Positions 761 to 55,100 of a stretch of 64,000 bases of DNA are shown here, in pieces; position 1 is the stretch's first letter; the number at the start of each line of letters is the position of its first letter. The DNA is from an archaeon (GTDB lineage Archaea; Thermoplasmatota; Thermoplasmata; JAJSAE01). The stretch spans positions 4,222 to 68,221 of the forward strand of contig JAJSAE010000075.1 of assembly GCA_024281315.1 (NCBI GenBank). Reading direction: 5' to 3'. The notes under the pieces are model-generated. The model was not told the DNA's origin and ran no database searches. It was given only the letters and a program-made list of their open reading frames with translations. Position numbers and translations under genes: made by a program.

Positions 761-838
761 ATTATTTAAAGGACATATCCCGCCGTCATAACGGTTTAAT
801 ACCGGTGTGCTATATCCCTCCTTCCCGGGGGATGTAAC

Positions 839-4381: not shown

Positions 4382-5290
4382 ATGTCCGGCTTCGATATTA
4401 TAGCCGTAATCTCTCTCGGTCTTATCGCCGTTGGCCGCCTCTCCAATGCCAGAAAGGGGCATTTCCTCACGGGATTGGGCTGGGCTGTGTTCGGATTCTA
4501 TTGGGCACTTGAATTCCCATACTATCTTTCGATCGCAGATTTTATCAATGCAGTCCTTTCCATAGGGGCCCCGCCGGTCTTTCTTTTCCTGGCTTATCAC
4601 GAATTTTTGTCCTACGAATGGGGCGAGGACTACCGGCCGCTGTCATTCCTTGCCTCTGTTACCGCAGGAACCGGCCTTCCATATTTTTTCATAAAGTATG
4701 TTCCGTTCATTTCAAAAAACCTCATTGATGCCGTGGCATACCAGTCGGTCTGGATTACCAACCTTTTTGGCCTGAACCTCTCCGTTTCCGGCGGAGGATG
4801 GATAAACGGCGAGTATCTGGCCCATATAGACGGAGTTCCTGTAAGCATCATACTTGCGTGTACGGGAATACAGGCCATTCTTGTTGCCTTCTCTCTTATC
4901 TACTTCAGCAGAGGCGATTCCGCAGTCAAGAGGAATCTTCTGCTTCTGGTAATTCCGGTCATCTATGTGGCAAACCTCTTTCGGAATGTCATAGTCTTTC
5001 TTATTGTTGATGCTAACGGCATCTCCCAGTTTGAGTTTGCCCACGGTATCGTGGGAAAGGGACTGAGTACGCTGGTTCTTCTTATCCTCACTCTATACAC
5101 TTTCAAAAAAATCCCGCAGATGTACGACGACATCAACGGCCTGTTCGACCTGCCGTGGAGAAGGGGGCCGGGGCACGATTATGTGGCGCACTTCGATGCC
5201 ATGCTGGGTGTGAAGAGAGAGATGGATGCGGTGGGGGCAGATGGAGGAGAAGCAGACGGGCACAAAAATTCCTCTGGAGACGAGGAGTAA
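4382..5290 (+). CDS. archaeosortase/exosortase-family polytopic membrane protein
   Basis: 302 aa and multi-TM. Candidate catalytic Cys in ILACTGIQ (about residue 160) and Arg-Asn in ANLFRNV (about residue 201) are spaced about 41 aa apart, as in exosortase/archaeosortase active sites. Both downstream surface proteins have a C-terminal TM plus basic tail. Confidence 0.45.
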   Translation: MSGFDIIAVISLGLIAVGRLSNARKGHFLTGLGWAVFGFYWALEFPYYLSIADFINAVLSIGAPPVFLFLAYHEFLSYEWGEDYRPLSFLASVTAGTGLPYFFIKYVPFISKNLIDAVAYQSVWITNLFGLNLSVSGGGWINGEYLAHIDGVPVSIILACTGIQAILVAFSLIYFSRGDSAVKRNLLLLVIPVIYVANLFRNVIVFLIVDANGISQFEFAHGIVGKGLSTLVLLILTLYTFKKIPQMYDDINGLFDLPWRRGPGHDYVAHFDAMLGVKREMDAVGADGGEADGHKNSSGDEE

Positions 5291-5322
5291 CTTTTTTACC
5301 CTTTAACACATACGCTCCCTCA

Positions 5323-5988
5323 ATGAACCAGAGCAGAGTTATACTGGCCCTTGATGTTACGGACTGCGGTAGAGCGATGGAAATAGTCTCTCAGGCCTCT
5401 CCGTACACAGCCTTTGTCAAGATAAACTGGCCTATCGTGCTTGCGTGCGGGCCGGAGATAATAACCGAGATTTCAAAGATGGCCCCTGTCATATGTGACT
5501 TCAAGGTTGCGGACATACCCAACACCGACCGGCTGATAATAGAGCAGGCAGCGAAGAGGGGGGCCGCAGGCATCATTGTCCACGGATTTACCGGCTCTGA
5601 TTCCATGGAAGCCTGTGTTAAAACAGGGCATAGTGCGGGGACAAAGGTATTTGTGGTATCGGAGATGAGCCACCCGGGCGGCCGGCAGTTCACCGCGGGC
5701 CATGCGGAGGAGATTGTGAGAATGGCTGCGAAATACGGCGCGGATGGCCTCATCGCTCCTGCAACGCGCCCCGAAAGACTTGCGGAGATTAGAAGACTTG
5801 CAGGCGACATGCTCATCCTCTCGCCGGGGGTTGGTGCGCAGGGCGGCAGGGCGGCGGACAGTATAAGGGCCGGTGCCGACTATATAACCGTTGGTAGAGG
5901 CATATACACGGCTGAAAAGCCTGCAGAAGCCGCTAAAAACTATTTTGAGGATTCATTGGCCGCATACCGGGCTAAGAAAAATCTATAA
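5323..5988 (+). CDS. pyrF: orotidine 5'-phosphate decarboxylase
   Basis: Start MNQSRVILALDV (catalytic Asp-x-Lys region), then VKINWP and ICDFKVADIPNT motifs. The ORF-track ORF from 5155 is N-terminally over-extended and overlaps the upstream gene. Confidence 0.8.
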   Translation: MNQSRVILALDVTDCGRAMEIVSQASPYTAFVKINWPIVLACGPEIITEISKMAPVICDFKVADIPNTDRLIIEQAAKRGAAGIIVHGFTGSDSMEACVKTGHSAGTKVFVVSEMSHPGGRQFTAGHAEEIVRMAAKYGADGLIAPATRPERLAEIRRLAGDMLILSPGVGAQGGRAADSIRAGADYITVGRGIYTAEKPAEAAKNYFEDSLAAYRAKKNL

Positions 5989-14062: not shown

Positions 14063-14683
14063 TCAGTAGAGAATCCATATGCAGGCATTGTTCCTTAGAA
14101 CCATGTTCAGGTCGGTATTGGTGACACCTGCCTTTTCGAGGAGTATTGGTTTCCACTCGTCAGGGGCTATCTTTTTGGAACCGTCAGGGGCAACCGCAGC
14201 CAGTTGTGCGTACTTAAGCCTCTTCTTCGCCACTGTTATCCTTTCCGCCGCCGCTGCTCTGAAGGTCTGACATATAATACACTGGGTATCATTGACTCCG
14301 GGCTTTACGGTTGAGTTGTAGTAATCGGCAACCTCTTTGTGCACCCTCGCAAAATCTCCTATTCTCTTGGTGTACTCCTTCCAGCCGCGCTCGAACGGAC
14401 ATTTGTGTGTTACCATACAGTGGTTCGTTTTGGCCCGAACACTTTCGAATGTAGATATTATCGACTCCCCTTTTTCGAGAGATTCAACAAAATCCTCCCA
14501 TGTCTTATATTCCTCTTCAGGCATGCTCTTGGCCAATGAGGTGGCGAGGCTGATGAGATAGTTGTTCATTCCAGCAGCACCCTGCTTATCCGCAATGTCC
14601 TCAAGGAAGAGATAGGCAGCAACATCCACCAGTGGGTTCTCTTTTATTTCATATTCCTTATGTATCTCCCTTTCTTCTATCAT
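14063..14683 (-). CDS. hypothetical Cys-motif protein, paralogue A (possible V4R-like)
   Basis: 206 aa. Shares with the adjacent gene the motifs YNSTVK..(x).DTQCIICQTF and LRNNACIWIL versus YNNSVKDTAICNFCVIHQKF and LRNYACVFAIL. Its start overlaps the neighbour's stop (ATGA). Confidence 0.5.
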   Translation of the reverse strand: MIEEREIHKEYEIKENPLVDVAAYLFLEDIADKQGAAGMNNYLISLATSLAKSMPEEEYKTWEDFVESLEKGESIISTFESVRAKTNHCMVTHKCPFERGWKEYTKRIGDFARVHKEVADYYNSTVKPGVNDTQCIICQTFRAAAAERITVAKKRLKYAQLAAVAPDGSKKIAPDEWKPILLEKAGVTNTDLNMVLRNNACIWILY

Positions 14684-15312
14684 TCTTCCACCTCCTCTTC
14701 GCCCTTAAGCCTTGCACCTTTCATAAGAATGGCAAAGACGCAGGCATAGTTTCTCAGCAGGCTTCTGACATATTCCGGATTTATTCCTATTCTCTTCAGG
14801 CTATCCCTTGCAATCTTCGTCTCACCCTTAAATCCTCTGTCTGCCAGCTGCACGCATTCGAGGGGTTGGTCGGCTACGGTTATGTTCTTGGCTACCTCTT
14901 CTCTGAACTTCTGGTGGATTACGCAGAAGTTGCAGATTGCAGTATCCTTGACGCTGTTATTGTACTCCTCGGCCACAGCGGCATCGGCCTGCGGAACATC
15001 TCCCACACTGTATCTGACCCTTTGCATGGTAGGTTCAAAGACACAGGTTTTCAGAGCATATATGTAGCCCACCACATCTCCGTCGACATCCGTTACTGCC
15101 AGATCGGTCAGTGGGGTTACATCGCCCTCAATTGAGTATGCCGTCCTTCCTTCTCTCAGGGCCACATTGAACGAGGGCCAGCCCATATAGGCTTCCTTCC
15201 CCATCCTCATGGCCAGACTTTCTCCAACTCTTTCCCAGTACTGTATAGTACCTTCCACTCCTGCTTTTTCGCTCATATCCTGTATAAGCGAGACCAGAGC
15301 CACATCAAGCAT
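14680..15312 (-). CDS. hypothetical Cys-motif protein, paralogue B (possible V4R-like)
   Basis: 210 aa. Tandem duplicate of 14063-14683 with the same conserved Cys-containing motifs. Confidence 0.5.
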   Translation of the reverse strand: MLDVALVSLIQDMSEKAGVEGTIQYWERVGESLAMRMGKEAYMGWPSFNVALREGRTAYSIEGDVTPLTDLAVTDVDGDVVGYIYALKTCVFEPTMQRVRYSVGDVPQADAAVAEEYNNSVKDTAICNFCVIHQKFREEVAKNITVADQPLECVQLADRGFKGETKIARDSLKRIGINPEYVRSLLRNYACVFAILMKGARLKGEEEVEE

Positions 15313-15334
15313 TTATTCACCTCCTTTTTCCATG

Positions 15335-17335
15335 TTAATCACCTTTATCTTCTTTCTTCTCTTTTTTATTCTTCTTAATTCTTTTATATAGGGTTCGTCT
15401 GCCGCTCTGAACGGCGGTTGCCTCTCCCCTGTCTATAAGCATCTTTATCCCCATAAGGATATCAGTATATTTGATTCCCTTTGCCCCCCCTCTTATTCTG
15501 GCCATTGTGAGGCCGTTTTCTTCGGGCAGGATTTCTAAAATCTTTGTCAGTATCTCCTCATCGACATCTCCAATATCTTCCTCCGCTCTTTTTGCCGGCT
15601 CTTTTTTCAGCTCTTTGTCGCTATCTTTTCTGTTCTTTTTAGCTTTGACAGCCGCCTTTTCTTTATTCTTTGTTTCATCGGTTCCAGTGATTTTTTCGGG
15701 CTCCGGCGCGGGTGGCTTCTTTCTTTCCCCCTTCTTTGCTTTCGATTTCTTGGATTTTTTGCTCTTTTTCCCCCCGCCTTTTTCAGTCTTTTCAAGAACT
15801 GCCTTTTCTTGTCCCGTGCCCTTTTCTTCCGGGACCGCTCCCTTTTCGGAAACGGAAGGACTCTTTTCTACGCCCGGAACTTCTTTCGCTCTTTCCGTTA
15901 TTTCTCCTTCAGTTTTCCGCATTTCGGGAATCTCGGCCCTCTCTCCGGCAGGGCGGTAATATTTGATGGTCTTTCCTTTTTTCTTTTCGAATATGATTTT
16001 CTCATCTGCCAGCGCTTTAATCTTTTCTTTAAGCGTATCTTTATCCATAACTCCTGAGAGTTTTTTCGCCATGGCCGCGGCGCTCATCGCTTTCTCTTCT
16101 GTTTCCGGCACCGCATAATATATGAATTCGCTCTCTTCATCCAGTTCGCCCAGCCTTTTTCTGGAGGTAATGGTTTCCGTTACGCTCTCCGCTTTTTCTT
16201 CGAGACCTAGATGTTTTACGAGCATGTCTATTTTTGCCCCGTACAGCCCACCTTTCATCTCGCTCATCGCTTTCATGTTGTCAATTTCCTCACGGAGGCG
16301 CTCCTGTCCCTCTCCTATCTCTCTGAGCATTGATGCAAGCTCGTTCTTCTCTGTAGCCCCTATTTTGTCCTCGGTCAGCTTTTCCAGCTCTTTTTTGATG
16401 TCTGATATGGCAGAGTCATAGCGTAGATACATCTTCTTTTCAATGTCTCTGGCGGTCCGATCCATCTGCATTCCCTTTGCATTCAATTGCGCGGAGAGAG
16501 CGGCCACCAGCTGGTTTGTCTGGTTCACTCTCTTCTCCATCTGATCCACCTTCTCCAGAAGGAATGATGTTTTGTCCACCGTGTACTCCTGACTCTTAAT
16601 TTTTATCATGGCTCTGAAGTTTTTGGCCTTGTGATAAGGTATGTATTCCGTGAGTTTGTCCAGAAGAACATCGTATGTGGTCTGTATCTGTTTGGACGAA
16701 ATAAGCCCTTCGGACAGGCTTTTTGCGAGATTATTTGTGCGGATTCTCCGGTTGTTATCGAAACGGAAGAGTTCGCTACCACTGGTCATGAGCCTTACTT
16801 CTTCCAGAGTCTCAGTTATGACTCTCTCGAAATCCCCGGGTCCGAGGCTTTTCCAGAGTTCGCCGACAAGGTCGTCAAGTGTGGACTGATAGACGATTTC
16901 CAGGATATTCGGAGGAATTTTGGAGACATCGAGACTCTCACCGTATCCGACCTCGCTCATTATATCATCTATTTTGTTGTCTATCTTTTCGATGCTGCGT
17001 TCCACATTTTTTCTGTTTTTCTTTTCTTCCGCCTTCTCTGCTTCCATCTCGGTCTTCAGCCGCAGAAGGTGCTCTTCCCTGTTCTTAGTCTCTTCTTTGA
17101 TACTTTCTAACTCTTTTTTCACATCATTGAGATTTTTGAAGTACTCCTCGAACTGACTGTATATCGTATCAAGGCGCTCCAGCACCTCATCCTTCAGCTG
17201 CTTTATGGCATCCAATCCGTCTTCTTTCTGCTGGCTACTCTGGGAATACTCTTCGTTCTGGGGCCTTCCTTCCGTCTCTCCTACCGCATCTTTCATACAA
17301 AACTCCTCAGTTTCCGATCGAGTTCCGGAATCCAT
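15335..17335 (-). CDS. long coiled-coil protein with Lys-rich low-complexity linker and C-terminal winged-helix-like domain
   Basis: 666 aa with very high E/K content and heptad-like segments. KKSKKSKKSKAKKGERKK region, then a C-terminal LTMARIRGGAKGIKYTDILMGIKMLIDRGEA module. Its 5' end overlaps the roadblock gene's 3' end. Confidence 0.6.
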   Translation of the reverse strand: MDSGTRSETEEFCMKDAVGETEGRPQNEEYSQSSQQKEDGLDAIKQLKDEVLERLDTIYSQFEEYFKNLNDVKKELESIKEETKNREEHLLRLKTEMEAEKAEEKKNRKNVERSIEKIDNKIDDIMSEVGYGESLDVSKIPPNILEIVYQSTLDDLVGELWKSLGPGDFERVITETLEEVRLMTSGSELFRFDNNRRIRTNNLAKSLSEGLISSKQIQTTYDVLLDKLTEYIPYHKAKNFRAMIKIKSQEYTVDKTSFLLEKVDQMEKRVNQTNQLVAALSAQLNAKGMQMDRTARDIEKKMYLRYDSAISDIKKELEKLTEDKIGATEKNELASMLREIGEGQERLREEIDNMKAMSEMKGGLYGAKIDMLVKHLGLEEKAESVTETITSRKRLGELDEESEFIYYAVPETEEKAMSAAAMAKKLSGVMDKDTLKEKIKALADEKIIFEKKKGKTIKYYRPAGERAEIPEMRKTEGEITERAKEVPGVEKSPSVSEKGAVPEEKGTGQEKAVLEKTEKGGGKKSKKSKKSKAKKGERKKPPAPEPEKITGTDETKNKEKAAVKAKKNRKDSDKELKKEPAKRAEEDIGDVDEEILTKILEILPEENGLTMARIRGGAKGIKYTDILMGIKMLIDRGEATAVQSGRRTLYKRIKKNKKEKKEDKGD

Positions 17336-18087
17336 GTGTTAATACATTCGTCGGCGAGTATATCCCCTCTCAGCTTCCTAATATGATTTTCTATAACCTT
17401 TTCCATGAACATGGCCCACAGCCTGTCGGTCATGTACGCGGCGCTGGTCCCCATCTCGTTGAACGAAAGTGTGATAATTTCATCTACCTGCCCCACGCCC
17501 ACGGTTTCGGCCACTTTCTTCTTTATGAACTCCAGAATCTCCATGTTCTTCTTGTATTTTCGCGTATGTTTGAATTGTTCTACAAAGAGCTGGCGGCTCA
17601 GTCTTCTGAGTTCGTTGGCAACATCATCGGGTAGAGCTGCAAGGGTAGTGCTATCCATTCTTCTCAGTTCGAAAACATGTTTAAGTACCGCACTGCCGGT
17701 CAGAAGTCTTTTCACGGTTTCGTCCATATCGGTGGGGTCAACATCCTGTGCAAATAGAGAAGCCAGAAAGGCATTGTCCCCGATTCCGGTTATTATCAGC
17801 ACCCCTTCCTTATACTTCTCAATTGCAAGGGTCAGATTCTCGTTCTTCAGCTGTCCGCAGATATATGGTTTCTTCGCCTTCATCAGATTTAGCATAAAGA
17901 ACTGGGGCGGCGTCAGCTGCGGCGGTATGAGGGAGGCGAAAACTCTGCCATCAACGCCGATGAACATCAGTATGTCGATGTTGTTCTCTTCCCGCATATG
18001 CTTCAATTCCATGTTCAGCATGTGCTTTAGAAGAGTGACATCCTCTGCCTCGAGGGTCTTGTCCATCTTCTTAAGGGTTTTCTCCAT
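17293..18087 (-). CDS. Roadblock/LC7 (MglB-like) domain protein with C-terminal extension
   Basis: 264 aa. IDILMFIGVDGRVFASLIP...GVLIITGIGDNAFLASLF matches the Roadblock/LC7 pattern. Confidence 0.55.
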   Translation of the reverse strand: MEKTLKKMDKTLEAEDVTLLKHMLNMELKHMREENNIDILMFIGVDGRVFASLIPPQLTPPQFFMLNLMKAKKPYICGQLKNENLTLAIEKYKEGVLIITGIGDNAFLASLFAQDVDPTDMDETVKRLLTGSAVLKHVFELRRMDSTTLAALPDDVANELRRLSRQLFVEQFKHTRKYKKNMEILEFIKKKVAETVGVGQVDEIITLSFNEMGTSAAYMTDRLWAMFMEKVIENHIRKLRGDILADECINTWIPELDRKLRSFV

Positions 18088-18095
18088 TCTCTCAC

Positions 18096-18971
18096 CTACT
18101 TCAGGCCGTACGAGTCGAAGATTATTTGGAGTGCTTCCTCCGGCGAGTAGTCGTAGTTCCAGTTCTCTTTCATGGCCGTAATTCTCTCTATTACATACTC
18201 GGGAGCCTTGATGAATTTTGCCGTCTTTATGGCTTCGTCGAATATCTTGTCGTAGTCCTTCCCTTCTTCCTCCGTTTTTTCCACTGGATATGCCCTTACC
18301 ACAATACCGACTCCTCTGGAGAATATATAGGGATATACTCCTTCGCCATGCTGGGTTCCTCTCATCTTTATTATATTGAGAGTCCTGTTAAAAGCACCCC
18401 CAATGGGATAGTATTCCAGATGGAATACACCATCAGCCAGATATATCGGCAGAAGCACATCTTCTCCGATGGTCTCCCCAGGCTTGCTGTGTTCCTCAAC
18501 CGTAGCCATGACAACACCGAGTTCCTTCAGGGTGTAGAACAGTTTTCCGATGAGTTCTCTCTGTTCCAGTTTATTTTCGGTGGCCCATATGACCGGTGTC
18601 ATGGGGTCTATGACCACTCTCGTCTTTATGTCGTAATCGCTCCTTGCCTTCACCAACTGGGGCAGCTGCTCTTCTATCATCTTCTTGAAGTTTTTCCCCT
18701 TCAGGTGAATGAAGAACAGATTCTTTTCGTAGTGCTTTTCCATGTCCCAGCCCATCATCTTTGCCTCTTTCATTATCTGCTCGGGCGACTCTTCCATGGT
18801 TACATAGAGACCCTGTTCTCCGTTGTCAATACCGTGCATTAAGAACTGCATGGCAAAGGTGGTTTTTCCAGTCCCGCTGGACCCTACCACTACGATTGCA
18901 CTTTTATCTATCAGGCCCCCCTCTATCAACTGATCCAGGCCATATATTCCCGTTTTTATTCGCTCAACCAT
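18096..18971 (-). CDS. KaiC-like/RecA-superfamily ATPase (single domain)
   Basis: 291 aa. Walker A VVGSSGTGKTT, Walker B-like RVVIDPMT, overall KaiC/RadB-like layout. TAG stop immediately followed by an in-frame TGA. Confidence 0.75.
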   Translation of the reverse strand: MVERIKTGIYGLDQLIEGGLIDKSAIVVVGSSGTGKTTFAMQFLMHGIDNGEQGLYVTMEESPEQIMKEAKMMGWDMEKHYEKNLFFIHLKGKNFKKMIEEQLPQLVKARSDYDIKTRVVIDPMTPVIWATENKLEQRELIGKLFYTLKELGVVMATVEEHSKPGETIGEDVLLPIYLADGVFHLEYYPIGGAFNRTLNIIKMRGTQHGEGVYPYIFSRGVGIVVRAYPVEKTEEEGKDYDKIFDEAIKTAKFIKAPEYVIERITAMKENWNYDYSPEEALQIIFDSYGLK

Positions 18972-18994
18972 TCTCCTACCTCCTTTTATTAGTA

Positions 18995-19885
18995 TTATTC
19001 CTCATCTTCTTTATTAATCTGCTTGCTTAGAAGTTCCGCAAAACTCCTGCTCTTTTTTGCTTCTTCTGAAAGGTTCACAACCTTTTCCTCATCAACCTCA
19101 TACATGGGTTCCTTGAAAGTAGCACTCTCAAAGGCCACCGCAAAGGATTCCGAAGCGGCGATCGCGGATGTGATCTTTTGCATATCCTCCCACGGCGCTG
19201 GAAAGTCTTCTTCTGCAGAGACCTGATTCTTCATATACATGTAATATGTCTCGCCAACCTCGGTGACCCTGTGTTCTTTGTCTATAATCTTGTAATTTTT
19301 AAGGACGGAGAGGCGGTACTCCATCTCCTCCATGCCCATCTCCAGCTCTCTCGATATCTCCCCGACTCCTTTCCCGTGCCGGAGTTCTCTTATTATCTCT
19401 CTGTCTATGGTGTCCAGAGCGATTTTATATACCGCAAGAGGCTGTATGGCCACGATGAATGTGCATCTATCTGCTCCCTCATTCATGCAGATTGTCTCTT
19501 TCGCTTCCGACGGCAGTCCGAGATCCTTTGTAAAGAACTCTTCCAGCGCGTCGCTAGTTATATAGCATGTCTTTTTTCCTTTAAGCCGGTATGCTTTCGC
19601 CACGGGATTCTCAGGCACGGAGAATACATATCTGAAATTCTCTACTCTTGTTATCTCCATCCTGCCGAGACCGATGTTCTCGAAGAGGTCGGTCATGAAT
19701 TGATAGAGCGGCGTGTTCGATATTTCCGTGGCATTGGCGCACTTCAGCATCTTTCTCACTTCCGATGGCGGTACGCGAGAACTCTCCAGTGCCGCCCTAA
19801 TTGCCGAGTCTATCTTTGTAAGCTTTCCGAGAACGGCAAGCCCTTCGGCAAAGGATTCGAAGTTGCCAAGTTCCCCTTCCTTCAT
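18995..19885 (-). CDS. V4R-domain protein with HTH region
   Basis: 296 aa. KGKKTCYITSDALEEF...ETICMNEGADRCTFIV fits the V4R C...G...C.F signature. Central DREIIRELRHGKGVGEISRELEM is HTH-like. Confidence 0.55.
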   Translation of the reverse strand: MKEGELGNFESFAEGLAVLGKLTKIDSAIRAALESSRVPPSEVRKMLKCANATEISNTPLYQFMTDLFENIGLGRMEITRVENFRYVFSVPENPVAKAYRLKGKKTCYITSDALEEFFTKDLGLPSEAKETICMNEGADRCTFIVAIQPLAVYKIALDTIDREIIRELRHGKGVGEISRELEMGMEEMEYRLSVLKNYKIIDKEHRVTEVGETYYMYMKNQVSAEEDFPAPWEDMQKITSAIAASESFAVAFESATFKEPMYEVDEEKVVNLSEEAKKSRSFAELLSKQINKEDEE

Positions 19886-20448
19886 TAGATATCCCCCCTG
19901 AGTTTTATGATGAATTTTCTGTCCTCCTCACCAAGAATCGAAATGCCTCTTTCGGTGATGTTTTCCCCGGAAATGTATCCCTCGCCTTCCGCTTTTTCTA
20001 TAAGATGATATATTCTCCTTTCGTCTGTTTTCATGAGGGAGGAGATGAGAAGCGGCGAGTGTAATCCTACCCCCCATAGTTTTACCAGATTTATCAGTTC
20101 GTCATCCTCTCCCGTTGTCACCAGTTGTGGCAGAAGAAAATGTCTTAATGCCATGAGTGTTTCCGCTCTTTCTCCCGACACTTCGATGTCCAATGCGGGT
20201 ATATTGATGCGCAGCCTCGGAGGGTCGTCCTCGGTAATGGTCATATCTATTATTTTTTCTATGGGAATTTCATACCATACATTTCCGTCAGATATCATGA
20301 TCCCAGACATGGCCAGATATATCTTCCCCTCTTTCCACACGAGACCTATGTTTATCCCGGAGTCTCTGGGACTTATTGCGAACTTGACTTCTTCGAGTTG
20401 GTATGCCTTCATGAATGGCCTCCTTTCTCCTCTTATAGTCGGATGCAA
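19885..20448 (-). CDS. hypothetical protein (first gene of the operon; possible wHTH at C-terminus)
   Basis: 187-aa ORF. Its stop overlaps the downstream start, and the AT-rich putative promoter lies directly upstream. Confidence 0.4.
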   Translation of the reverse strand: MHPTIRGERRPFMKAYQLEEVKFAISPRDSGINIGLVWKEGKIYLAMSGIMISDGNVWYEIPIEKIIDMTITEDDPPRLRINIPALDIEVSGERAETLMALRHFLLPQLVTTGEDDELINLVKLWGVGLHSPLLISSLMKTDERRIYHLIEKAEGEGYISGENITERGISILGEEDRKFIIKLRGDI

Positions 20449-28741: not shown

Positions 28742-29440
28742 CTACTCGAATATCGGGCCGAGGACCCTTATGCCCCCCTTGCCCACCTCTATTGCGTGCT
28801 TCTCCATGCTGTGCTGGGATGCCCTCATCTTCTCCACCTGAAGATATCTGGTGAGTTTTCCCCTGCTCCTGTCAAGCCCCAGAAGAATTATGCCGTCCAC
28901 AAGGAAGCCCTCGTTTCCGAGGAGTTGGGACGGTTCTCCGGGAATTCTCTCCATTATCACAAAGGAATAAAGGTTGTTTTCTCTCAGCATCTTGAAGAAG
29001 TAGAACATCTTCTTTCTCATGTCCTCTTCATGCTCCATTAGAGAGTAAATGGCGCCGAGAGAATCGAGTGCGAATATGGAGAACTGGTCCTTCTTTTTCT
29101 TCTTGAAGTGAACAATCATCTTCTCTATGAACTGAAGATAATCCGTGCCCTCGTCGTCAACCACGGCATCAATGTCTCTCAGGTCGGTAAAGTCCGATAT
29201 CTGCATGTTTCGGGTGAGTTTTACCCCGAGGCTCTTCATGTTCGTGAGGTGGCTGTCCACTGTTTCTTCGAGGGTGGTATACAGGCCGAACTCTCCGGTC
29301 GCATCCAGATACCTGGACATGAGCGTATACACGAAACTGGTCTTCATGGAGCCGGGGGGGCCTGTAATCAGGATAACCTTCGGTTTGCCGATATCCGTTT
29401 TGAATATCTTGTCGAGTCCTTCTATGGAATTCTTGAACAT
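28742..29440 (-). CDS. KaiC-like/RecA-superfamily ATPase (short, single domain)
   Basis: 232 aa. Walker A ILITGPPGSMKTSF, Walker B-like SIFALDSLG. KaiC-like profile. Confidence 0.7.
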   Translation of the reverse strand: MFKNSIEGLDKIFKTDIGKPKVILITGPPGSMKTSFVYTLMSRYLDATGEFGLYTTLEETVDSHLTNMKSLGVKLTRNMQISDFTDLRDIDAVVDDEGTDYLQFIEKMIVHFKKKKKDQFSIFALDSLGAIYSLMEHEEDMRKKMFYFFKMLRENNLYSFVIMERIPGEPSQLLGNEGFLVDGIILLGLDRSRGKLTRYLQVEKMRASQHSMEKHAIEVGKGGIRVLGPIFE

Positions 29441-29487: not shown

Positions 29488-32002
29488 TTATAAACCTTGC
29501 CCGCCAGCCGCCTCCGGTTCGTTCTCTGTCTTGACCTCATCTTCATCCGCTTTTTCGGCCAGTCTGGCCACAGCGCTTACCTTGTCGCCGCTTCTGAGCC
29601 TCATTATCCTTACGCCCTGCGTTGCTCTGCCCATGACCCGCAGGTCCGCAACCGACATTCTTATTATCATTCCTTCTTTGCTGGTGACTATAAGTTCGTC
29701 GCTGGGGGTGACCTCCAGAACAGCTTTGACCGGTCCGTTCCTCTCGTTCACCTTTATCGTGATAACGCCCTGAGAGCCGCGGTGCGTCCTCCTGTAATCC
29801 CTCACCCACGATAGTTTTCCATAGCCGTTTTCAGTAATTGTGAGAAGTATGGACGAATCATTACCGGTGGATGTGCTGACCACCTCGTCGTCTTTGCGCA
29901 GTCGTATTCCTATGACTCCGTGAGAATTCCTGCCCATTGGCCTCATTTCGCTCTCGTGGAATCTCGCGGCCTTTCCGTACTTTGTGGCTATAAGAACATC
30001 CCGGTCTCCGTCGGTAATTCTGGTGTCTATGAGTTCGTCGTCATCCCAGAGCGCAATAGCGATAATGCCCGTGGTTCTCGGTCTTGAATACGCCTCTAAT
30101 GGAGTCTTCTTCACTCTCCCTTTCTTCGTGGTGAAGAGCAGGAACCTGTCTCCGGTGAATTCTCTGACATGGATTGTGTTGACTATGGCCTCCCCCTTCT
30201 CCAACCTCGGCAGAAGATTCACTATGGGACGACCTTTGGCGTGCCTCCCAGCTTCCGGAATTCTGTAGGCTTTTAGCCAGTACACCCTTCCGCGGTTGCT
30301 GAAGAACATGATGTAACTGTGCGATGAGGTAACGAACATATCCACCACATCGTCCTCCTCCTTGGTTGTCATTCCCTTGAGCCCGACTCCGCCCCTTCTC
30401 TGCTGGTGGTAGGTGTCCACTGGCATCCTTTTTATATAGCCGGTTCGGGTGATGGTGATTACCACATCCTCCTCCGGTATCAGGTCTTCAATATCCATAT
30501 CTATCTCCTGATCAACAATATCCGTCTTCCTTCCGTCGCCGAACTTTTCTTTGAGGGCAATCAGGTCCTCCTTTATCATGGCCAGAATCCTCTCTTCCGT
30601 TGCGAGTATGTCCTTATAATCCTCTATCTTTTTCTGAACCTCGTCGTACTCCGCCTTGACAGCCTCCCTCTCCATGCCAGTGAGCTTCTGCAAGCGCATG
30701 TCGAGGATTGCCTTGGCCTGAACCTCTTTCAGGAGGAAGCGGGAGATAAGCGCAAGTTTTGCTTCGTCCACCGTCTTCGCCTTTCTTATGAGCCTTATGA
30801 CCTCGTCCAGATTGTCAAGTGCAATGAGGATACCGTCAAGTATGACAGCCCTGTCCTCCGCTTTTCTGAGAAGATACTGCGTCCTTCTGGTGATAACATC
30901 CTTCCTGTGCTCTATGTAGTGATGAATGAGAGATTTGAGGGGGAGTGTCTTCGGCTCGTTATTCACAAGGGCAAGATTGTTTATTCCGAATGTGGTCTCC
31001 AGCTGGGTGTGGGCGAATAGCTGATTCAGAACAATCTCCTCCATGACATCCTTCCTCAGTTCGATAACAATCCTCATGCCGGAGCGGTCCGATTCGTCCC
31101 GCAGGTCGGTTATTCCGTCTATCACCCTATCCCTCACCAATTTCGCAATGGCCTCCATGAGATTGGACTTGTTCACCATGTACGGTATTTCATTAACGAT
31201 AATTCTCCGCTTCCCGTTCTTCAACTCCTCTATATTCGTCTTTGCCCGAACCTTTATCGTGCCCCTGCCAGTGCTGTATGCGCGAAGTATGCCGCTTCTT
31301 CCATATATTGTTCCCACGGTGGGGAAATCCGGTCCGTTTATCACGGACATAAGGTCCAGAAGAGGAATTTCCGGGTCGTCAATCTGCATGATTATGGCAT
31401 CCACGACCTCGCTGAGGTTGTGCGGGGCCATGTTTGTGGCCATTCCAACCGCTATACCCGACGAGCCGTTCACAAGAAGATTGGGGAGGACAGCGGGGAG
31501 AACCGTAGGCTCCTTCAAACTGCCGTCGAAGTTGTCCACAAAATCCACGGTATCTTTGTCTATATCCTCCAGCATGGTGGCCGCAATCTTACCCAGCCTG
31601 CACTCGGTATATCTCATGGCCGCAGCCCTGTCACCGTCCACCGAGCCAAAGTTTCCCTGCCCGTCAACAAGCGTGTACCTGAGAGAAAACGGCTGAGCCA
31701 TCCTCACAAGGGAGTCATAGACCGCACTGTCACCGTGGGGGTGGTACTTACCGAGAACCTCTCCCACAACCCTTGCTGACTTCTTGTACGGCCTGCTGTG
31801 TATGAGGCCCATGTCGTTCATGGCGTAAAGGATTCTCCTGTGAACAGGTTTCAGGCCGTCCCTCACATCGGGCAGAGCGCGGCCAACAATGACGCTCATG
31901 GCGTAGTCTATGTAGGCCTTCTTCATCTCGTGCTCCACCGGCTCGTTAAGTATCGTCTCGCCGGAGGGGGCGGTCTGGTCCGTGTTATCATCGTCTGGCA
32001 TA

Positions 32003-32028
<26 letters not shown>
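29488..32028 (-). CDS. gyrA: DNA gyrase subunit A
   Basis: 846 aa. [44 protein letters not shown] and the AAMRYTE catalytic Tyr region, plus C-terminal beta-pinwheel repeats. The true start may be an internal Met (MIDM/MPDD), which would reduce the overlap with the RM gene. Confidence 0.95.
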
Positions 32029-37580
<5,552 letters not shown>

Positions 37581-42311: not shown

Positions 42312-43106
42312 ATGGCAGACGAGCAGAAGGTTCGCGAAACGCGTTCATGGCTGAAGGGATACGACAAGGGAATGAGAGATGCATGGGAGGCCATGCGAAA
42401 ACTCACCCGTCGCGGCCTTACCCCGGCAGAGCTTAAAATCATGCTGGACAGTGAGGTTCAGAACATCCCCCGTGCCGTGGATGAGCGGAAAAAGGCCTTC
42501 GAAAAGGCTCTGGGTGTCTCCCTTGACGAGGAGAAAAAGAGCGCATTTCGGGAGATTCCCGAGATGGAGGCCGGCCAGAGTTATCTCGTTAGAGAGGATA
42601 GGCCAAGCATCAGTTTCGAACTGTTCAAGCAGCTTATTAAGGAAGGAAACCCGCCACTCTGCATTGTAAGGACCCCTCCAAAGACGACGCGCGAGAGATA
42701 CACTATCCCCGAGGACATCAGAATTCTCTGGCTCACCAAGTCTGAGAACCCGCATAGAAAGAGCAGTTCTGGAATACTCACAGCAACCCTTGGAATCGGC
42801 GCAATGGATGCGGACAGCGGGGGGGAGGACAATACCTATCTTTCCCCTACCAACCTATCGACCATATTGTCCATTATCGTGGATTTTCTGGAGGGGGCTG
42901 GGGACGGAAAGAATCCCGTTCTCCTGCTTGAGGGCGTCGAGTACCTGATAACCCAGAACGAGTTCAAGAGTGTTCTTCGTTTCCTGCAGAACATAAACGA
43001 AAAGATTGCCATGCGGGATGCCTACTTCATCGTGCCCATAACAGAGGGGGCGCTCGAGCAGAAGCAGTTTAAATTGATAGAGAAGGAGATGAGCGTGGTC
43101 ATCTAG
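42312..43106 (+). CDS. DUF835-like protein (possible KaiC-derived, ATPase-motif-less domain)
   Basis: 264 aa. C-terminal [59 protein letters not shown] resembles DUF835. There is no Walker A. Confidence 0.4.
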
Positions 43107-43513
43107 GCCATTGCCCTGACCATTTTAACCGCCGCTTCCACTGCAGCCTTTGCTCTCTCTATTCTCCCTTCTGCCTGCAATCTCGTCATTCCCGGCCCTG
43201 TTATTCCAAGACTTACCGGCTTGTTGTAGTCCAGCGCAAGGTCGGTTATCTTCCTGCTGGCCTGTTGTATAACAATCTCGTCATGGTCCGTTTCCCCCTC
43301 AATAACCGCACCAAGGGTTACAACCGCATCTATCTCCTCTTTTTCCACCAGTTTCTTCACGCCCAGCGGCATATCAAACACGCCGGGCACCTTTAACACC
43401 TCGGTCACATCCGCACCGAGGAACTCCGCATGCGCTTTTGCTCTCTCCAGCATCATCATGGTGATGTCGTAGTTGAACTCACTCACCACGATTCCCAGTC
43501 TTATTTTATCCAT
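43103..43513 (-). CDS. ribH: 6,7-dimethyl-8-ribityllumazine synthase
   Basis: 136 aa. [10 protein letters not shown]...[11 protein letters not shown]...[20 protein letters not shown]. Confidence 0.85.
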
Positions 43514-43550
43514 TTTTCATACCTCCTTTTTCTTCAATCATCAATCATTA

Positions 43551-47088
<3,538 letters not shown>

Positions 47089-47092
<4 letters not shown>

Positions 47093-47579: not shown

Positions 47580-48299
47580 TCAGGATTTAAGGTATTCTCT
47601 CCATGCCTCAATTATCTCCTGCCCTGTCAGATAGATAAAGCCGTTCTTTTTGCCGTATCTCTCCGCTTCCGTTCTCGAAAGGGCGTTACCGTCATCCCCC
47701 ATCATCTCGCATATGGTTGCCGAAGGCGTAAGACTAGCCATTATCACAAGAGCGGTGGATAACTCGGTGTGACCGAACCTGCTCTCCAGTATTCTCTCCG
47801 ATGTGTTGAGAAGGTGCAAATGGCCCGGGGTCCTGAAATTCTTGCCGAACTCCCTCATGCTCTCTTCTTTTTCATGGCCGCCGGTAAAGTCGCACAGTTT
47901 CGCAAACTCGCTGGCGGTCAGCGCCCTGTCGTTATCTGTTATGCCTGTGTATGTCCTTCTGTAGTTGATTGTGATGGAAAACGCGGATTTGGTATCGTAG
48001 GGGATATCGGTGGGTGAGAGAAGGGAAAGGAGAGGGTAGGTTTTCGAGGCTTCGGTATTTACATCCACCATGAACGGGAGGCCCAGCTTCTCCCTCACCT
48101 CAAAGGGCACGGTGGTGCAGATGAGGCCGCCGCCGTCCCTGCGCATACGCCTTATCCGGTCCGGGGTGATGAACTGCGAGGCATAGACAAAGTCCGTTTC
48201 CTCCTCTCTTCCGTCTGCATCATATACGAGTACCGGTTCTCCCCTGCGAAGGGATTCAAGGGCCTTCTCAACTCTGGGGTTCATGAGTGAGGATGGCAC
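47580..48299 (-). CDS. ribB: 3,4-dihydroxy-2-butanone 4-phosphate synthase
   Basis: 239 aa. ALESLRRGEPVLVYDADGREEETDFVYASQFITPDRIRRMRRDGGGLICT. Confidence 0.85.
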   Translation of the reverse strand: MPSSLMNPRVEKALESLRRGEPVLVYDADGREEETDFVYASQFITPDRIRRMRRDGGGLICTTVPFEVREKLGLPFMVDVNTEASKTYPLLSLLSPTDIPYDTKSAFSITINYRRTYTGITDNDRALTASEFAKLCDFTGGHEKEESMREFGKNFRTPGHLHLLNTSERILESRFGHTELSTALVIMASLTPSATICEMMGDDGNALSRTEAERYGKKNGFIYLTGQEIIEAWREYLKS

Positions 48300-51151: not shown

Positions 51152-51316
51152 CTAACAGCCCCCGCCTCCTCTCTCTTCCACTATATATCTGCCGGGGCTG
51201 TATGCAAACTCTTTTCTGCATTTTTCCGAGCAGAAGTAGTACATTCTTCCGTGGTATTCATAGTAATGTTCACTATCTGGCCTGACTTTCTTTCCACATA
51301 CGGGGTCATACGGCAT
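51152..51316 (-). CDS. YHS/TRASH-domain metal-binding small protein
   Basis: 54 aa from MPYDPVCGKKV...YYFCSEKCRKEF. Its start lies 1 nt downstream of the iscU stop. Confidence 0.6.
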   Translation of the reverse strand: MPYDPVCGKKVRPDSEHYYEYHGRMYYFCSEKCRKEFAYSPGRYIVEERGGGGC

Positions 51317-51317
51317 A

Positions 51318-51929
51318 TTATTCCTCCTTAATTTCAACATTAACATCCATCTTCTCGAAGACCTCTTCCACATTGGAGAGGATTTCCTCTCTGTGCTCCT
51401 CGCTGCTGATGTGCAATAGAAGGTTTAAGTTTCTGCCGGAAATCTCTATCTTTTTCACCGTACCCGAGTTTATCAGATCTTTGTCGGTGCTTGGGTCAAG
51501 AATCCCTCTGAGCAGTGTTTTTACGAAATCCTCTGTCAAATCCTTCTTGCCATTCATATAATCCCACTTGTTAAGTGCTATCTTTAGGGCCTGTACCGCC
51601 AGAACCGCACAGTGATACTTTATCTTCGGGAGACCGCCGAGTGCGGTTATCTCGTCCCGGAATGTCAATTCACGGGCGTATTCCAGCGTTTTCCCTCTGA
51701 TCATCTCGGTTATCATGGAACTCGTGGCGATGTTGGCCACGCAGCCGTAGGATTCGAATGTAACCCTCTCGATTGTTTCGTTCTCTCTGTCTATTTTCAG
51801 ATACAGTTTCAGCATGTCTCCACAGGCCACGCTCCCGGCAATTGCGGTAATGTCGGCATCCTCCATGACCCCTGCGTTCTTGGGCTGCATAAACAGTTCC
51901 TTAACCTTTAAAGAGTATCCCGTCTTCAT
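51318..51929 (-). CDS. iscU: IscU/NifU-type Fe-S cluster scaffold with C-terminal extra domain
   Basis: 203 aa. GSVACGDMLKL...ESYGCVANIATSS...YHCAVLAVQALK, the three-Cys scaffold pattern. Confidence 0.8.
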   Translation of the reverse strand: MKTGYSLKVKELFMQPKNAGVMEDADITAIAGSVACGDMLKLYLKIDRENETIERVTFESYGCVANIATSSMITEMIRGKTLEYARELTFRDEITALGGLPKIKYHCAVLAVQALKIALNKWDYMNGKKDLTEDFVKTLLRGILDPSTDKDLINSGTVKKIEISGRNLNLLLHISSEEHREEILSNVEEVFEKMDVNVEIKEE

Positions 51930-51930
51930 T

Positions 51931-53100
51931 CTATTTCCTCCTGTTTCTGTAAAGAGGGCTGATTTGCCTCAGTTTTTCTATTACGAATCTCATTGTCTCC
52001 GCTGCCCGGTCCATTTCCTCCGCGGTGTTGTATATAGACAGCCCGAACCGTGTGGACGAATTGGCCTGCTCCGCACCCTTGCCAATGGCCGATATTACAT
52101 AGCTGTACTTCAACGCGGGGTTGAAGCAGGCTGATCCGGTTCTAACGATAAGGCCCTTCTCACTCGCCAGCATGAGGACCGCTTCCCCTTCCACGCCTCT
52201 GAATGATATGTTCACATTATCCACTACGCGATATTTATGGGGGCCGTTGAGCTCGGAGTCCGGTATTTCCAGCAGGGCGTTCGTGAGGCGGTCCCTCATT
52301 AGTCTGACTCTCTCCACATCCTCTTTCCTTGCTTCCTTTACCGCTTCTGCCAGACCTGCGATTGCGGGCATGTTGGGATTTCCGCCCCTCTTGCCGAATT
52401 CTCTCAAATCTCCGTGAAGGAGCGGTTCAAGTTTCATGCCTTCTCTTACGAAAAGGGCTCCGCTTCCGAGCGGTGCGTGAATCAGATGGCCGGATATGGT
52501 CAGCAAGTCCACATTGAGCCTGCTAACATCTATCTTTTCCCTCAGGAAGGAATGACTGGCGTCCGTGTGAAATATGACTCCTTCGTCATCTGCAATATCT
52601 CCGACGGCCTTAATGTCCTGAACGGTTCCAATCTCCTGATTTGCGTGTTGAACCGACAGAAATGATGCGCCTTTGATGTTCTCCTTCAGTTCTTCAATGT
52701 TGATAAACCCCTCGGAATCCACACCGATACGCACGGCCTCATGCCCCCTGCTCTCAAGATATTTGAACGAGGCTAGAATACACTTCCTCTCAATGGCGGA
52801 TGTTACTATTTTCTGTTTGCCAGAGTGCTTTTCCATATATCCTACAGTGCCCTTAACCGCAAAATTATTTCCCTCGGTAACTCCCGATGTGAAGATTATT
52901 TCCTCGGGTTTTGCACCGATTTTTCCGGCGATTGTCTCTCTGGCTTTCCATATGGCATCTCCCGCTTCTTCCTCGAAAAGATGGCCGAACTCTCCGCCGG
53001 GGACGCCGTAACTAATCAGATAACGCTCTTTCATGGCCTCGAACACCCGGTCCGAGACCCTTGTCACATTCCCGTTATCGAGATAGATTACTTCCGCCAT
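51931..53100 (-). CDS. iscS: IscS/NifS-family cysteine desulfurase homologue lacking the PLP-binding lysine
   Basis: 389 aa. TSGVTEGNNFA, HTDASHS and RTGSACFNPALKYSY (catalytic Cys loop) are present. Where the conserved SGHK sits, the sequence reads ISGHLIHAPLGSGALF (Lys to Leu). Confidence 0.8.
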   Translation of the reverse strand: MAEVIYLDNGNVTRVSDRVFEAMKERYLISYGVPGGEFGHLFEEEAGDAIWKARETIAGKIGAKPEEIIFTSGVTEGNNFAVKGTVGYMEKHSGKQKIVTSAIERKCILASFKYLESRGHEAVRIGVDSEGFINIEELKENIKGASFLSVQHANQEIGTVQDIKAVGDIADDEGVIFHTDASHSFLREKIDVSRLNVDLLTISGHLIHAPLGSGALFVREGMKLEPLLHGDLREFGKRGGNPNMPAIAGLAEAVKEARKEDVERVRLMRDRLTNALLEIPDSELNGPHKYRVVDNVNISFRGVEGEAVLMLASEKGLIVRTGSACFNPALKYSYVISAIGKGAEQANSSTRFGLSIYNTAEEMDRAAETMRFVIEKLRQISPLYRNRRK

Positions 53101-53207
53101 GATTATTCTACCGACAGGTATTATTTAATACTTTTTGGACAGGTCTGCCCTCCTGCCTCGGAGAACAGCGGCCAAACCCGTTAAATATCTCCTGTCTATC
53201 CGCATGC

Positions 53208-55100
53208 ATGGGTTCCGTATACCTCGGCAAAATACACCTTCGGTGGTGTCATTCGTGCAATCTACCTATACTGGAGGAGAAGGAGTGCCCGGTATGCGGT
53301 GCGCCCACGATGCCGGTGGAAATCACGCCGCCGGGGGATGCAAGGCCCGCCTTTTCCGGGGATATAGAACTCATAAGGCGGATTGTGAACTCTCAGTTTG
53401 GAGAGGGAACAGGGAGGTCCCTCCTCCCGGATGATGCCCTTGTGATTATGAACCGCGCACCGGACCTTGACCGGATGGACGAGGTGATTGCGGACGGAGA
53501 GGTGCTGGGAAGCCTGAGGTACGATATTGTTCGGGGCTTTGAGTTCCTGCCCCGGGCAGCGGGAGCACTCAGACTCTCCAAAACGGCTTCAAAAGGCATT
53601 GTCAATATGGACGAAGGGGCATATGGGCCGGTGATAAAAGGGGCCAGCGCCCTTGCCGTCGGGGTGCTTTCGGCAGATCCAGAGATAAAGAGCGGCCAGC
53701 AGGTCCTCTTGAAATGCTGCGGGAGGATATTTGCAGGCGGAAGAGCGAAGATGGACGCTTCCGAAATGCTGGAAGGCGGTGCGAGGGGGAGTGCGGTAAA
53801 GGTCAGATGGACTATTCCGGAGGATATGCGGCGAGAGGTGCGGAAGCAGCCCGGATGGGGTGATGTCGTCACGGCCAACAAAGTGGTTATCGACAGAAGG
53901 GTGAAAGAGGCGATTTCTTTCGTAAAGGAGCAGACAGAGAAGTGCAGGGGAACTGTGGCTGTTTCCTACAGTGGGGGAAAGGACAGTCTGGCCACGCTAT
54001 CCCTTGTGTTGGAAGCCGGCATAAAGCCGGAGATGTTCTTCATAAATACCGGAATAGAACTGCCGGAAACCGTGGAGAATGCGGAACTTGTCTCGCGTCA
54101 CTTTTCGCTCCTCTTGAAGATCGCCGATGCGGGGAACGCCTTCTGGCGCGCACTGGAGTACTTCGGTCCACCCGGAAAGGACCACCGCTGGTGCTGCAAG
54201 ACATGCAAACTCGGCCCCACGGTTCAGGCCATAAAAAGCGACTTTGACGGTGAGCTCCTCTCGTTCATCGGCCAGAGAGGGTACGAATCCAAGCAGAGAA
54301 AGAACAAAGGGGAGACATGGGAGAACCCCTGGACCCCCGGACAGCACGGCGCATCCCCGATACAGCACTGGACAGCGCTCCATGTCTGGCTTTACATATT
54401 CGACAGAAAACTCCCTTACAACATCTGGTACGAGAGGGGAATGGAAAGGGTGGGGTGCTTCTTATGCCCCACGATGGACCTCGGAGAAGCGGAGATTTTG
54501 AGAGAGGAATACCCGGAATACAGGAAATGGGAGGATTACCTTAAGGATTACTTTGAGAAGAGGGGGCTTGGCGATGAATGGGTAAGATACGGACTGTGGC
54601 GGTGGAAACGCCCGCCCGAATCAATACTGAAACGGCTTGAGGAGGAGGGGATATCCATCTCCCTGCCCGCCGGGAAAAGAAAGGGGAATGTACGGAAACT
54701 CGCACCGACAAGGGATAAAAGCGGGACGCTTCTGGCCTTCGGCGGCCCCTTTGATATGGAAACCGTGGCCCCGTTCCTGAACATACTCTCTCCCACTTCC
54801 AGGGGGGGCGATGGCTCCGTTCTGCTGGAAAAGAGTGCGGCCTGCCTCACCCTGCATCCGGACGGGAGCATAACAGTGAAAGACCCGGAGAAGCCGTACA
54901 AAAAGGACCTGCGCCTGCTGGAAGAGTTGATATACCGCGCCTCGGAGTGTGTGGGATGCGGAATCTGTCCCGGAAGGTGTCCCACCGGGGCCCTTGACAT
55001 GGCAGGCGGCAGAATAACGATAGATGTTGAGAAGTGCGCACACTGCTCCCTCTGTCTGGAAGGGCCGTGCCCGGTGGTGGACTTCGGGCATCGTCTGTAA
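53208..55100 (+). CDS. PAPS-reductase/PP-loop superfamily protein with N-terminal Zn-ribbon region and C-terminal 2x[4Fe-4S] ferredoxin-type domain
   Basis: 630 aa. CHSCN...CPVCG ribbon, PP-loop VAVSYSGGKDSLATL, CxxC pair HRWCCKTCKLGP, C-terminal CVGCGICPGRCP...CAHCSLCLEGPCP. Confidence 0.55.
   Translation: MGSVYLGKIHLRWCHSCNLPILEEKECPVCGAPTMPVEITPPGDARPAFSGDIELIRRIVNSQFGEGTGRSLLPDDALVIMNRAPDLDRMDEVIADGEVLGSLRYDIVRGFEFLPRAAGALRLSKTASKGIVNMDEGAYGPVIKGASALAVGVLSADPEIKSGQQVLLKCCGRIFAGGRAKMDASEMLEGGARGSAVKVRWTIPEDMRREVRKQPGWGDVVTANKVVIDRRVKEAISFVKEQTEKCRGTVAVSYSGGKDSLATLSLVLEAGIKPEMFFINTGIELPETVENAELVSRHFSLLLKIADAGNAFWRALEYFGPPGKDHRWCCKTCKLGPTVQAIKSDFDGELLSFIGQRGYESKQRKNKGETWENPWTPGQHGASPIQHWTALHVWLYIFDRKLPYNIWYERGMERVGCFLCPTMDLGEAEILREEYPEYRKWEDYLKDYFEKRGLGDEWVRYGLWRWKRPPESILKRLEEEGISISLPAGKRKGNVRKLAPTRDKSGTLLAFGGPFDMETVAPFLNILSPTSRGGDGSVLLEKSAACLTLHPDGSITVKDPEKPYKKDLRLLEELIYRASECVGCGICPGRCPTGALDMAGGRITIDVEKCAHCSLCLEGPCPVVDFGHRL

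Follow-up and report, generated by a model that had tools for sequence, protein, structure and literature searches.

A 64,000-nucleotide stretch of archaeal DNA (contig JAJSAE010000075.1, from a member of the Thermoplasmatota; the whole stretch is referred to here as the window) carries at 51931..53100, on the minus strand, an IscS/MisS-like gene for a 389-residue protein of type I cysteine-desulfurase fold in which the lysine that forms the Schiff base with pyridoxal 5'-phosphate (PLP) is missing. The reading we favor, to which we would assign a probability of roughly 60%, is that the product is a type I desulfurase paralogue without catalytic activity. By analogy with the IscS of Archaeoglobus fulgidus, the protein would act as a non-catalytic MisS that docks the scaffold IscU and supplies its loop cysteine, Cys325, with sulfur coming from sulfide or from another donor. 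The locus thereby bears on the question of how archaea supply sulfur to iron-sulfur (Fe-S) clusters without a working cysteine desulfurase.

A preliminary description of this DNA had reported that the protein aligns well with cysteine desulfurases and retains their cysteine loop, and both peptides that it quoted, VDLLTISGHLIHAPLGSGALF and VRTGSACFNPALKYSYV, are present in the open reading frame (ORF). The alignment extends over nearly the full length of the protein, with the Pfam family Aminotran_5 (PF00266) matching residues 5-365 of 389 at an E value of 1.2e-56. Against solved structures the best sequence match is to Escherichia coli IscS (E 1e-74, 39% identity), followed by human NFS1 (1e-69) and A. 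fulgidus IscS (8e-69, 35% identity). An AlphaFold2 model built on a 32-sequence alignment has a mean predicted local distance difference test score (pLDDT) of 90.1 and a predicted template modeling (TM) score of 0.89, and it superimposes on NFS1, E. coli IscS and A. fulgidus IscS with TM scores of 0.92-0.94; pLDDT drops below 50 only at residues 324-328, within the cysteine loop, as is expected of a mobile segment. From the Pfam and structure-sequence matches and the confident model, the protein is thus predicted to be an intact type I desulfurase fold minus the lysine. It nevertheless scores below every NCBIfam cut-off for desulfurase equivalogs: 344.8 bits against 530.75 for NifS (TIGR03402), 306.2 against 643.2 for IscS (TIGR02006) and 314 against 548 for NF010611. 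The nearest named homologues, 61-63% identical, come from metagenome-assembled genomes (MAGs) labeled 'Thermoplasmata archaeon'.

The loss of the lysine itself, described earlier as a change from SGHK to SGHL, is borne out by an ungapped alignment to E. coli IscS that sets 'LMSFSGHKIYGPKG' over 'LLTISGHLIHAPLG'. The E. coli motif SFSGHK corresponds to TISGHL here, and the Schiff-base lysine, Lys206 in the E. coli protein, falls on Leu206. The codon is CTG, at 52483..52485 (minus strand), two substitutions away from AAG, just as the preliminary description had argued in calling an error unlikely. To place this change among relatives, we aligned the 120 nearest database clusters with E. coli IscS. 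Position 206 is occupied by something other than lysine in 111 of them (73 Leu, 35 Val, 3 other), and the nine that keep the lysine are all Bathyarchaeota-like. The query's own clade consists of 41 clusters reaching down to 53% identity, its named members being Thermoplasmata MAGs; here the residue is Val or Leu in 39 of 41.

The loss of active-site residues evidently extends beyond the lysine. E. coli His104, the histidine that stacks on PLP and serves in acid-base chemistry, corresponds to Arg105 in the query (52786..52788, minus strand; 'aieRkcil' versus 'kteHkavl'), and Arg stands there throughout the clade (41/41). Gln183 is replaced by His183 (52552..52554, minus strand; again 41/41), and Lys211 of the 'GPKG' motif by Leu211 (52468..52470, minus strand; Leu in 40/41, 98%). 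Thr243 corresponds to Asn241, and almost every clade member has His, Asn or Tyr there. Beside the cysteine loop, two further changes are specific to the clade, Ser323 to Arg and His350 to Asn. In lysine-bearing control relatives, by contrast, Lys206, His104, Gln183 and Lys211 are each invariant (75/75). A neighboring clade keeps His104, Gln183 and Thr243 and has changed only the lysine. In the mechanism of IscS and SufS, the lysine and the histidine are generally held to carry out the proton transfers; with Lys206 and His104 both replaced, the query's clade thus lacks both proton-transfer residues. The preliminary description had named, as an observation that would overturn it, a different nearby lysine at the PLP site. 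Across the 41-member clade we found no conserved lysine at a PLP-contact position: the conserved lysines lie only at the equivalents of E. coli residues 84, 105, 164 and 225, none of which is a known PLP contact, and the neighboring Lys211 is itself Leu.

Other parts of the active site are retained with great strictness. The flexible loop of the catalytic type, TGSACFNPALKYS (52102..52140, minus strand), matches that of E. coli IscS in length, and its cysteine (TGSAC), Cys325 in the query and Cys328 in E. coli, is present in all 120 relatives; it is this residue that we propose as a fourth ligand or a sulfur carrier for IscU. Within the clade, eleven pocket and active-site positions are 100% invariant, compared with 20% of all alignment columns: Gly73, Glu76, Asn154, Glu156, Asp180, Ser203, His205, Cys325 and Arg351, together with the new residues Arg105 and His183. 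Thr75, also a cofactor-pocket residue, is likewise strictly conserved. The earlier statement that the protein keeps the "other motifs" of desulfurases is therefore correct for the loop cysteine, Asp180, Ser203, His205 and Arg354, and incorrect for His104, Gln183, Lys211 and Thr243. Judged by what defines a desulfurase enzyme, the fold and the loop cysteine are present, and three defining properties, the lysine, the histidine and a score above the NCBIfam thresholds, are missing.

The second line of evidence is the coupling to IscU. The gene directly downstream, at 51318..51929 on the minus strand, encodes a 203-residue IscU/MisU scaffold in which Pfam recognizes NifU_N (residues 5-124) and FeS_assembly_P (residues 136-196). 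Alignment to the IscU structures of Methanothrix, Aquifex and A. fulgidus shows that the cluster-site residues Cys36, Asp38, Cys63, His106 and Cys107 are all in place. The C-terminal ~70 residues match FeS_assembly_P, a DUF59/SufT-like domain, above the Pfam cut-off (E 2.9e-6); read by eye, this domain lacks the cysteine that DUF59 proteins usually have. A lysine-less IscS followed by this IscU-DUF59 fusion recurs in five other loci: L001 (IscS 62% identical to the query, fusion at 11161-11790), L082 (83%, 6172-6783), L083 (54%, 7203-7814), L084, from a Nitrososphaerales MAG, and L086, from a Korarchaeota MAG (fusion at 5133-5780). We also scanned a sample of species-representative genomes with the query-family alignment, where relatives were at most 47% identical among the matches listed. 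There, an IscU gene lies within 1.5 kb of 15 of 16 lysine-less IscS genes, as against 48 of 65 lysine-bearing ones, and the DUF59 fusion occurs in none of the IscU neighbors (62 of them beside other IscS types). Relative to L082, the 83%-identical and fully syntenic locus, the ratio of nonsynonymous to synonymous substitution rates (dN/dS) is 0.077 for IscS and 0.048 for IscU. The IscS-IscU pair is conserved and under strong purifying selection, and the low ratio and the invariant pocket positions show that this is not a decaying gene; the protein is functional and constrained, as is its altered pocket.

A published precedent suggests what such a protein might do. According to PMC8918507 and PMC7585200, A. 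fulgidus IscS has an Asp in place of the lysine, binds pyridoxamine 5'-phosphate (PMP) without a covalent bond and is inactive as a desulfurase. It has been proposed to be solely a scaffold partner that completes the ligand set of a [2Fe-2S] cluster on IscU with its loop cysteine as fourth ligand, and sulfide has been suggested as the source of sulfur. Restoring the lysine in the D199K variant did not bring back PLP chemistry (PMC8918507). Of the features that mark an inactive paralogue of this kind, those of sequence and gene context are found in the query: the lysine is replaced, the loop cysteine is kept, a complete IscU is encoded in the same orientation and the gene context is minimal. 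Because the catalytic residues are gone while the loop cysteine and the coupling to IscU are kept under strong constraint, the query fits the A. fulgidus picture. In that picture, the query would be the "S" component of a minimal MisS-MisU pair for Fe-S assembly, forming an (IscS-IscU)2 complex. It would be unable to make persulfide from cysteine; instead it would hold IscU and contribute, through Cys325, a fourth ligand to the [2Fe-2S] cluster as it forms, with free sulfide or another donor supplying the sulfur. In the pocket (Thr75, Asp180, Ser203, His205 and Arg351), a form of vitamin B6 is probably bound non-covalently in a structural role, and this would account for the invariance of Asp180, Ser203, His205 and Thr75, and the DUF59/SufT-like domain of IscU may help to hand the cluster on. 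The preliminary description had suggested either a scaffold partner or non-covalent use of PLP, and both ideas match the behavior of the A. fulgidus protein, the only lysine-less IscS to have been characterized; this analogy, the loss of His104, the retained loop cysteine and IscU, and the conservation of the pair lend support to that suggestion.

Several observations weigh against this reading. Identity to A. fulgidus IscS is no more than 35%, and a quick neighbor-joining (NJ) tree does not group the two proteins, so that the analogy spans lysine losses that are independent or very old. Some relatives come from MAGs labeled Nitrososphaerales, for which a plentiful supply of free sulfide is not obvious. 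Moreover, the strict conservation of Asp180, Ser203, His205, Arg354 and the new Arg105 and His183 shows that the pocket still does something, and its function could exceed a structural one.

In the quick NJ tree, a distance tree without support values, the 111 lysine-less nearest matches form one contiguous block, and both A. fulgidus IscS and a group of Methanosarcina-type proteins with the motif 'SAHT' fall outside it. Fitch parsimony requires at least six changes between Lys and non-Lys among 202 sequences, and the lysine losses of the query's clade and of the 35%-identical A. fulgidus IscS may be separate events. In a wider sample, representatives of 50%-identity clusters drawn from 1.84 billion proteins, 18 of the nearest 150 are without the lysine and between them have nine different residues in its place; the query's whole lineage falls into one or two such clusters. 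Loss of the lysine in IscS-like proteins is thus recurrent. A separate observation concerns the metagenomic locus L085, which at 819-4006 carries genes for IscU and TusA along with a tandem pair of distinct lysine-less IscS paralogues; the first is of the 'SAHT' type and the second of an 'SSNL' type whose best match among solved structures is A. fulgidus IscS. This pair echoes A. fulgidus itself, which has two lysine-less IscS genes.

A broader interpretation is that the lysine-less MisS proteins are a large and old archaeal lineage constituting a distinct, cysteine-independent Fe-S machine, fed by sulfide or by a carrier, in which the pocket has acquired a new ligand or role and is not a relic. 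The lineage is seen in MAGs labeled Thermoplasmata, Nitrososphaerales/Thaumarchaeota and Korarchaeota. It would be recognized by the motif 'PGGEFGH' near the N terminus, by Leu or Val in place of the lysine at position 206 and by an IscU partner with a fused SufT-like domain, and within it the query's clade has rebuilt the pocket further, with Arg105, His183 and Leu211. We put this forward tentatively, as possible if somewhat unlikely.

Among the explanations that compete with a non-catalytic docking partner, the one that fares best is a sulfur relay, in which the protein would make no persulfide of its own and Cys325 would take one over from another protein, such as a true desulfurase, TusA or a carrier of the rhodanese type encoded elsewhere in the genome, and deliver it to IscU. 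The invariance of the loop cysteine and the unchanged length of the loop are what such a relay would need, a TusA gene does lie beside IscU and the two lysine-less IscS genes in L085, and canonical, lysine-bearing IscS genes are present in other Thermoplasmata MAGs (L019, L034 and L063). Yet no sulfur-carrier or desulfurase gene lies within the 64-kb window, transfer of persulfide from one IscS to another is without known precedent, and the A. fulgidus proposal is for a ligand role with sulfide as the source (PMC8918507). A relay seems unlikely.

The protein might alternatively still be an enzyme, with non-covalent PLP forming an external aldimine with cysteine directly and Arg105, His183 and His205 taking over the acid-base catalysis. 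This would account for the clade-wide invariance of Thr75, Asp180, Ser203, His205, the substrate-carboxylate residue Arg351 and Cys325, as well as of the two new residues, and A. fulgidus IscS does bind PMP or PLP without the lysine (PMC8918507). That same protein is nonetheless inactive, and the D199K change did not bring its PLP chemistry back (PMC8918507). In the query, moreover, both usual proton-transfer residues are gone, no conserved lysine at a PLP-contact position could substitute, and the scores lie below all the desulfurase equivalog cut-offs, so that we consider residual catalysis quite improbable.

We give similarly little credence to a re-purposed pocket, in which Arg105, His183, Leu206 and Leu211 would bind some other ligand, such as sulfide or polysulfide, a metal or a regulatory amino acid, making the protein a sensor or a donor for IscU. 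The altered residues are as fixed as catalytic ones (98-100% invariant in 41 sequences down to 53% identity), and the clade-specific Arg and Asn beside the cysteine loop could belong to the same remodeling. The idea is, however, purely inferential, and the neighboring clade, in which the lysine alone has changed, is more simply explained by retained B6 binding. Finally, an artifact of sequencing or assembly, or a decaying pseudogene, for which nothing speaks except the missing lysine itself, can be dismissed in view of the full-length ORF, the two substitutions needed to turn Lys into Leu, the lysine-less state that 111 of the 120 nearest clusters share across many independent assemblies, the dN/dS of 0.08 and the confident predicted fold.

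Returning to the favored inactive MisS, its gene is the first of three that are packed tightly together and translationally coupled. The IscS stop codon TAG is followed by a single A and then the IscU ATG, and the IscU stop TAA by a single T and then the ATG of a third gene, at 51152..51316 on the minus strand, which encodes a 54-residue metal-binding mini-protein of the YHS/TRASH type (Pfam YHS, E 4e-15). A Shine-Dalgarno sequence, GGAGG, precedes the IscU start, and AAGGAGG precedes the YHS start; the true start of the YHS gene is 51316, the start at 51373 in the program-made ORF list being wrong. No Shine-Dalgarno sequence precedes iscS, whereas both internal genes have GGAGG, and an A/T-rich TATA-like element, AAAAAGTATTAAATAATA (53119..53136, minus strand), is centered about 28 nt upstream of the IscS ATG. 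This element is a candidate archaeal promoter, from which iscS, iscU and yhs would be transcribed together as a leaderless message. A scan for promoters and terminators of the bacterial type gave nothing above chance, the bacterial model being inapplicable to archaea, and an Rfam scan of the window gave no match.

The tight linkage to iscU and the YHS gene, with gaps of 1 nt, had been part of the preliminary description. The gaps are real and the pairing with iscU recurs, as described above; the linkage to YHS is lost even in the 83%-identical relative. In L082, the YHS gene has been reduced to a truncated remnant of 25 codons at about 6785-6862, reading MPYDPVCGKKVWADSEHFTGPQTFSS up to a stop codon, and in the other lysine-less IscS-IscU contexts examined it is absent. 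We considered YHS as a conserved third component of the system and rejected it on these grounds. Since the gene is intact in the window and a remnant in L082, it is an accessory that is dispensable or has recently been lost.

Around the pair, we found no iscR or other ISC accessory gene, and a Pfam scan of ORFs across the 64-kb window turned up none of hscA, hscB, fdx, iscA or sufBC; such a lack of ISC and SUF accessory genes fits a minimal two-gene system. A second Aminotran_5 gene, which might have formed an active/inactive pair with the query, was sought in the window by tblastn and not found. The genes near the pair encode a cupin, a peptidyl-prolyl isomerase, a PUA-PAPS-reductase-like protein and a diphthine synthase, and the rest of the window contains archaeal housekeeping genes (MCM, PolD, TFB, gyrase and GlnA). 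The PUA-PAPS-reductase-like gene (53208-55100, plus strand; 630 residues) is divergent from iscS at a distance of 107 bp and is syntenic in L082. Its product combines TGT_C2, PUA, a PAPS-reductase-like PP-loop domain and a 2x[4Fe-4S] ferredoxin domain, and matches the NCBIfam model PRK13795 ('hypothetical protein') with 616 bits. The protein resembles an Fe-S-dependent sulfur or ATP-pyrophosphatase enzyme directed at RNA, and the IscSU pair might count it among its clients.

The window has several other features of note. A riboflavin-pathway cluster upstream of the operon (43103-44057 and 47580-48299, both on the minus strand) contains two DMRL-synthase-family genes and a DHBP synthase, interleaved with large AAA_16/TPR (STAND-like) proteins at 44015-47092. 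An 1175-residue restriction-modification fusion of type IIG, Eco57I/MmeI-like (HSDR_N, N6_Mtase/Eco57I and TaqI_C; 32003-35530, minus strand), sits between gyrB (35499-37412) and gyrA (29488-32028) and slightly overlaps both. At 6021-12602 on the plus strand lies the gene for a 2193-residue protein with an N-terminal oligosaccharyltransferase domain of the STT3/AglB type and a long tail of CarboxypepD_reg/transthyretin-like repeats. A run of ORFs of 191-666 residues without a Pfam match (14063-20448 and 28742-29440, minus strand) is flanked by KaiC-like ATPase genes (18096-18971 and 28742-29440) and a gene for a V4R-domain protein (18995-19885), and both GC skew and AT skew are strongly negative over 14-22 kb.

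Lysine-less IscS proteins are common in the samples examined and almost always paired with IscU. The query locus is a well-conserved and selectively maintained example from a different lineage than the published ones, with a more thoroughly altered active site and a SufT-like fusion on its scaffold, and its clade would be a reasonable second model for sulfide-dependent cluster assembly, although it leaves current understanding unchanged.

In relation to known systems, the query shares with the canonical enzymes IscS, NifS and NFS1 (E. coli IscS, 1P3W; human NFS1, 5WKP and 8RME) the fold, the overall length, the length of the cysteine loop, the 'SPL[WY]' tail and the IscU partner, but Lys206, His104, Gln183, Lys211 and Thr243 of those enzymes are all replaced. 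SufT/DUF59 maturation factors belong to the same family as the C-terminal domain of its IscU, which is here fused to the scaffold itself. Closer in organization are the archaeal two-gene IscS-IscU modules that, according to PMC13066941 and PMC12442378, which summarize Garcia et al. 2022, are now named MIS (minimal iron-sulfur), with components MisS and MisU; PMC13066941 ranks MIS as the least studied of the systems. Like these modules, the query locus pairs an IscS-like with an IscU-like gene in an archaeal genome and has no chaperone, ferredoxin or A-type carrier genes beside them. The two reviews describe MisS as a cysteine desulfurase, whereas the query cannot use the canonical mechanism.

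A further archaeal relative that lacks the lysine and lies beside IscU is IscS1 (MisS1) of Methanosarcina acetivorans, which also lacks other PLP-binding residues and has been suggested to work in the manner of the A. fulgidus protein (Deere et al. 2020, PMC7585200). It was insoluble and has not been characterized biochemically, in contrast to IscS2, an active desulfurase (PMC7585200). In the genome sample, the lysine-less IscS proteins of Methanosarcina barkeri and other Methanosarcinales (L008-L010), which share 42-43% identity with the query, form the 'SAHT' group; they have Thr at position 206 and Asp at 104, keep Lys or Arg at 211, and have neighboring IscU genes without a DUF59 domain. 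M. acetivorans IscS1 probably falls in this group as well.

The nearest parallel is A. fulgidus IscS (Protein Data Bank 4HVK, 4EB5 and 4EB7; D199K, 4R5F), the 'inactive cysteine desulfurase paralogue', which the preliminary description had correctly cited as lacking the lysine and behaving atypically. The two proteins have the same fold (TM score 0.92), lack the Schiff-base lysine and keep the mobile loop cysteine. Both are encoded with IscU, with which the A. fulgidus protein was also crystallized in its cluster-carrying form, and neither has ISC accessory genes. The role of the A. fulgidus paralogue is itself not settled, according to PMC8918507. The differences lie in the pocket and in the partner. 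The replacement residue is Asp in A. fulgidus ('SSND') and Leu in the query ('SGHL'); the query keeps His205, which is Asn in A. fulgidus, and has lost His104 and Lys211, both of which A. fulgidus retains; and the query's IscU carries an extra DUF59 domain, while that of A. fulgidus has 153 residues. Lysine-less IscS proteins have already been published, in A. fulgidus IscS and M. acetivorans IscS1, and the query adds another example. It goes slightly beyond them in the invariant Arg105, His183 and Leu211, in the IscU-DUF59 fusion, and in the size and spread of the lineage to which it belongs.

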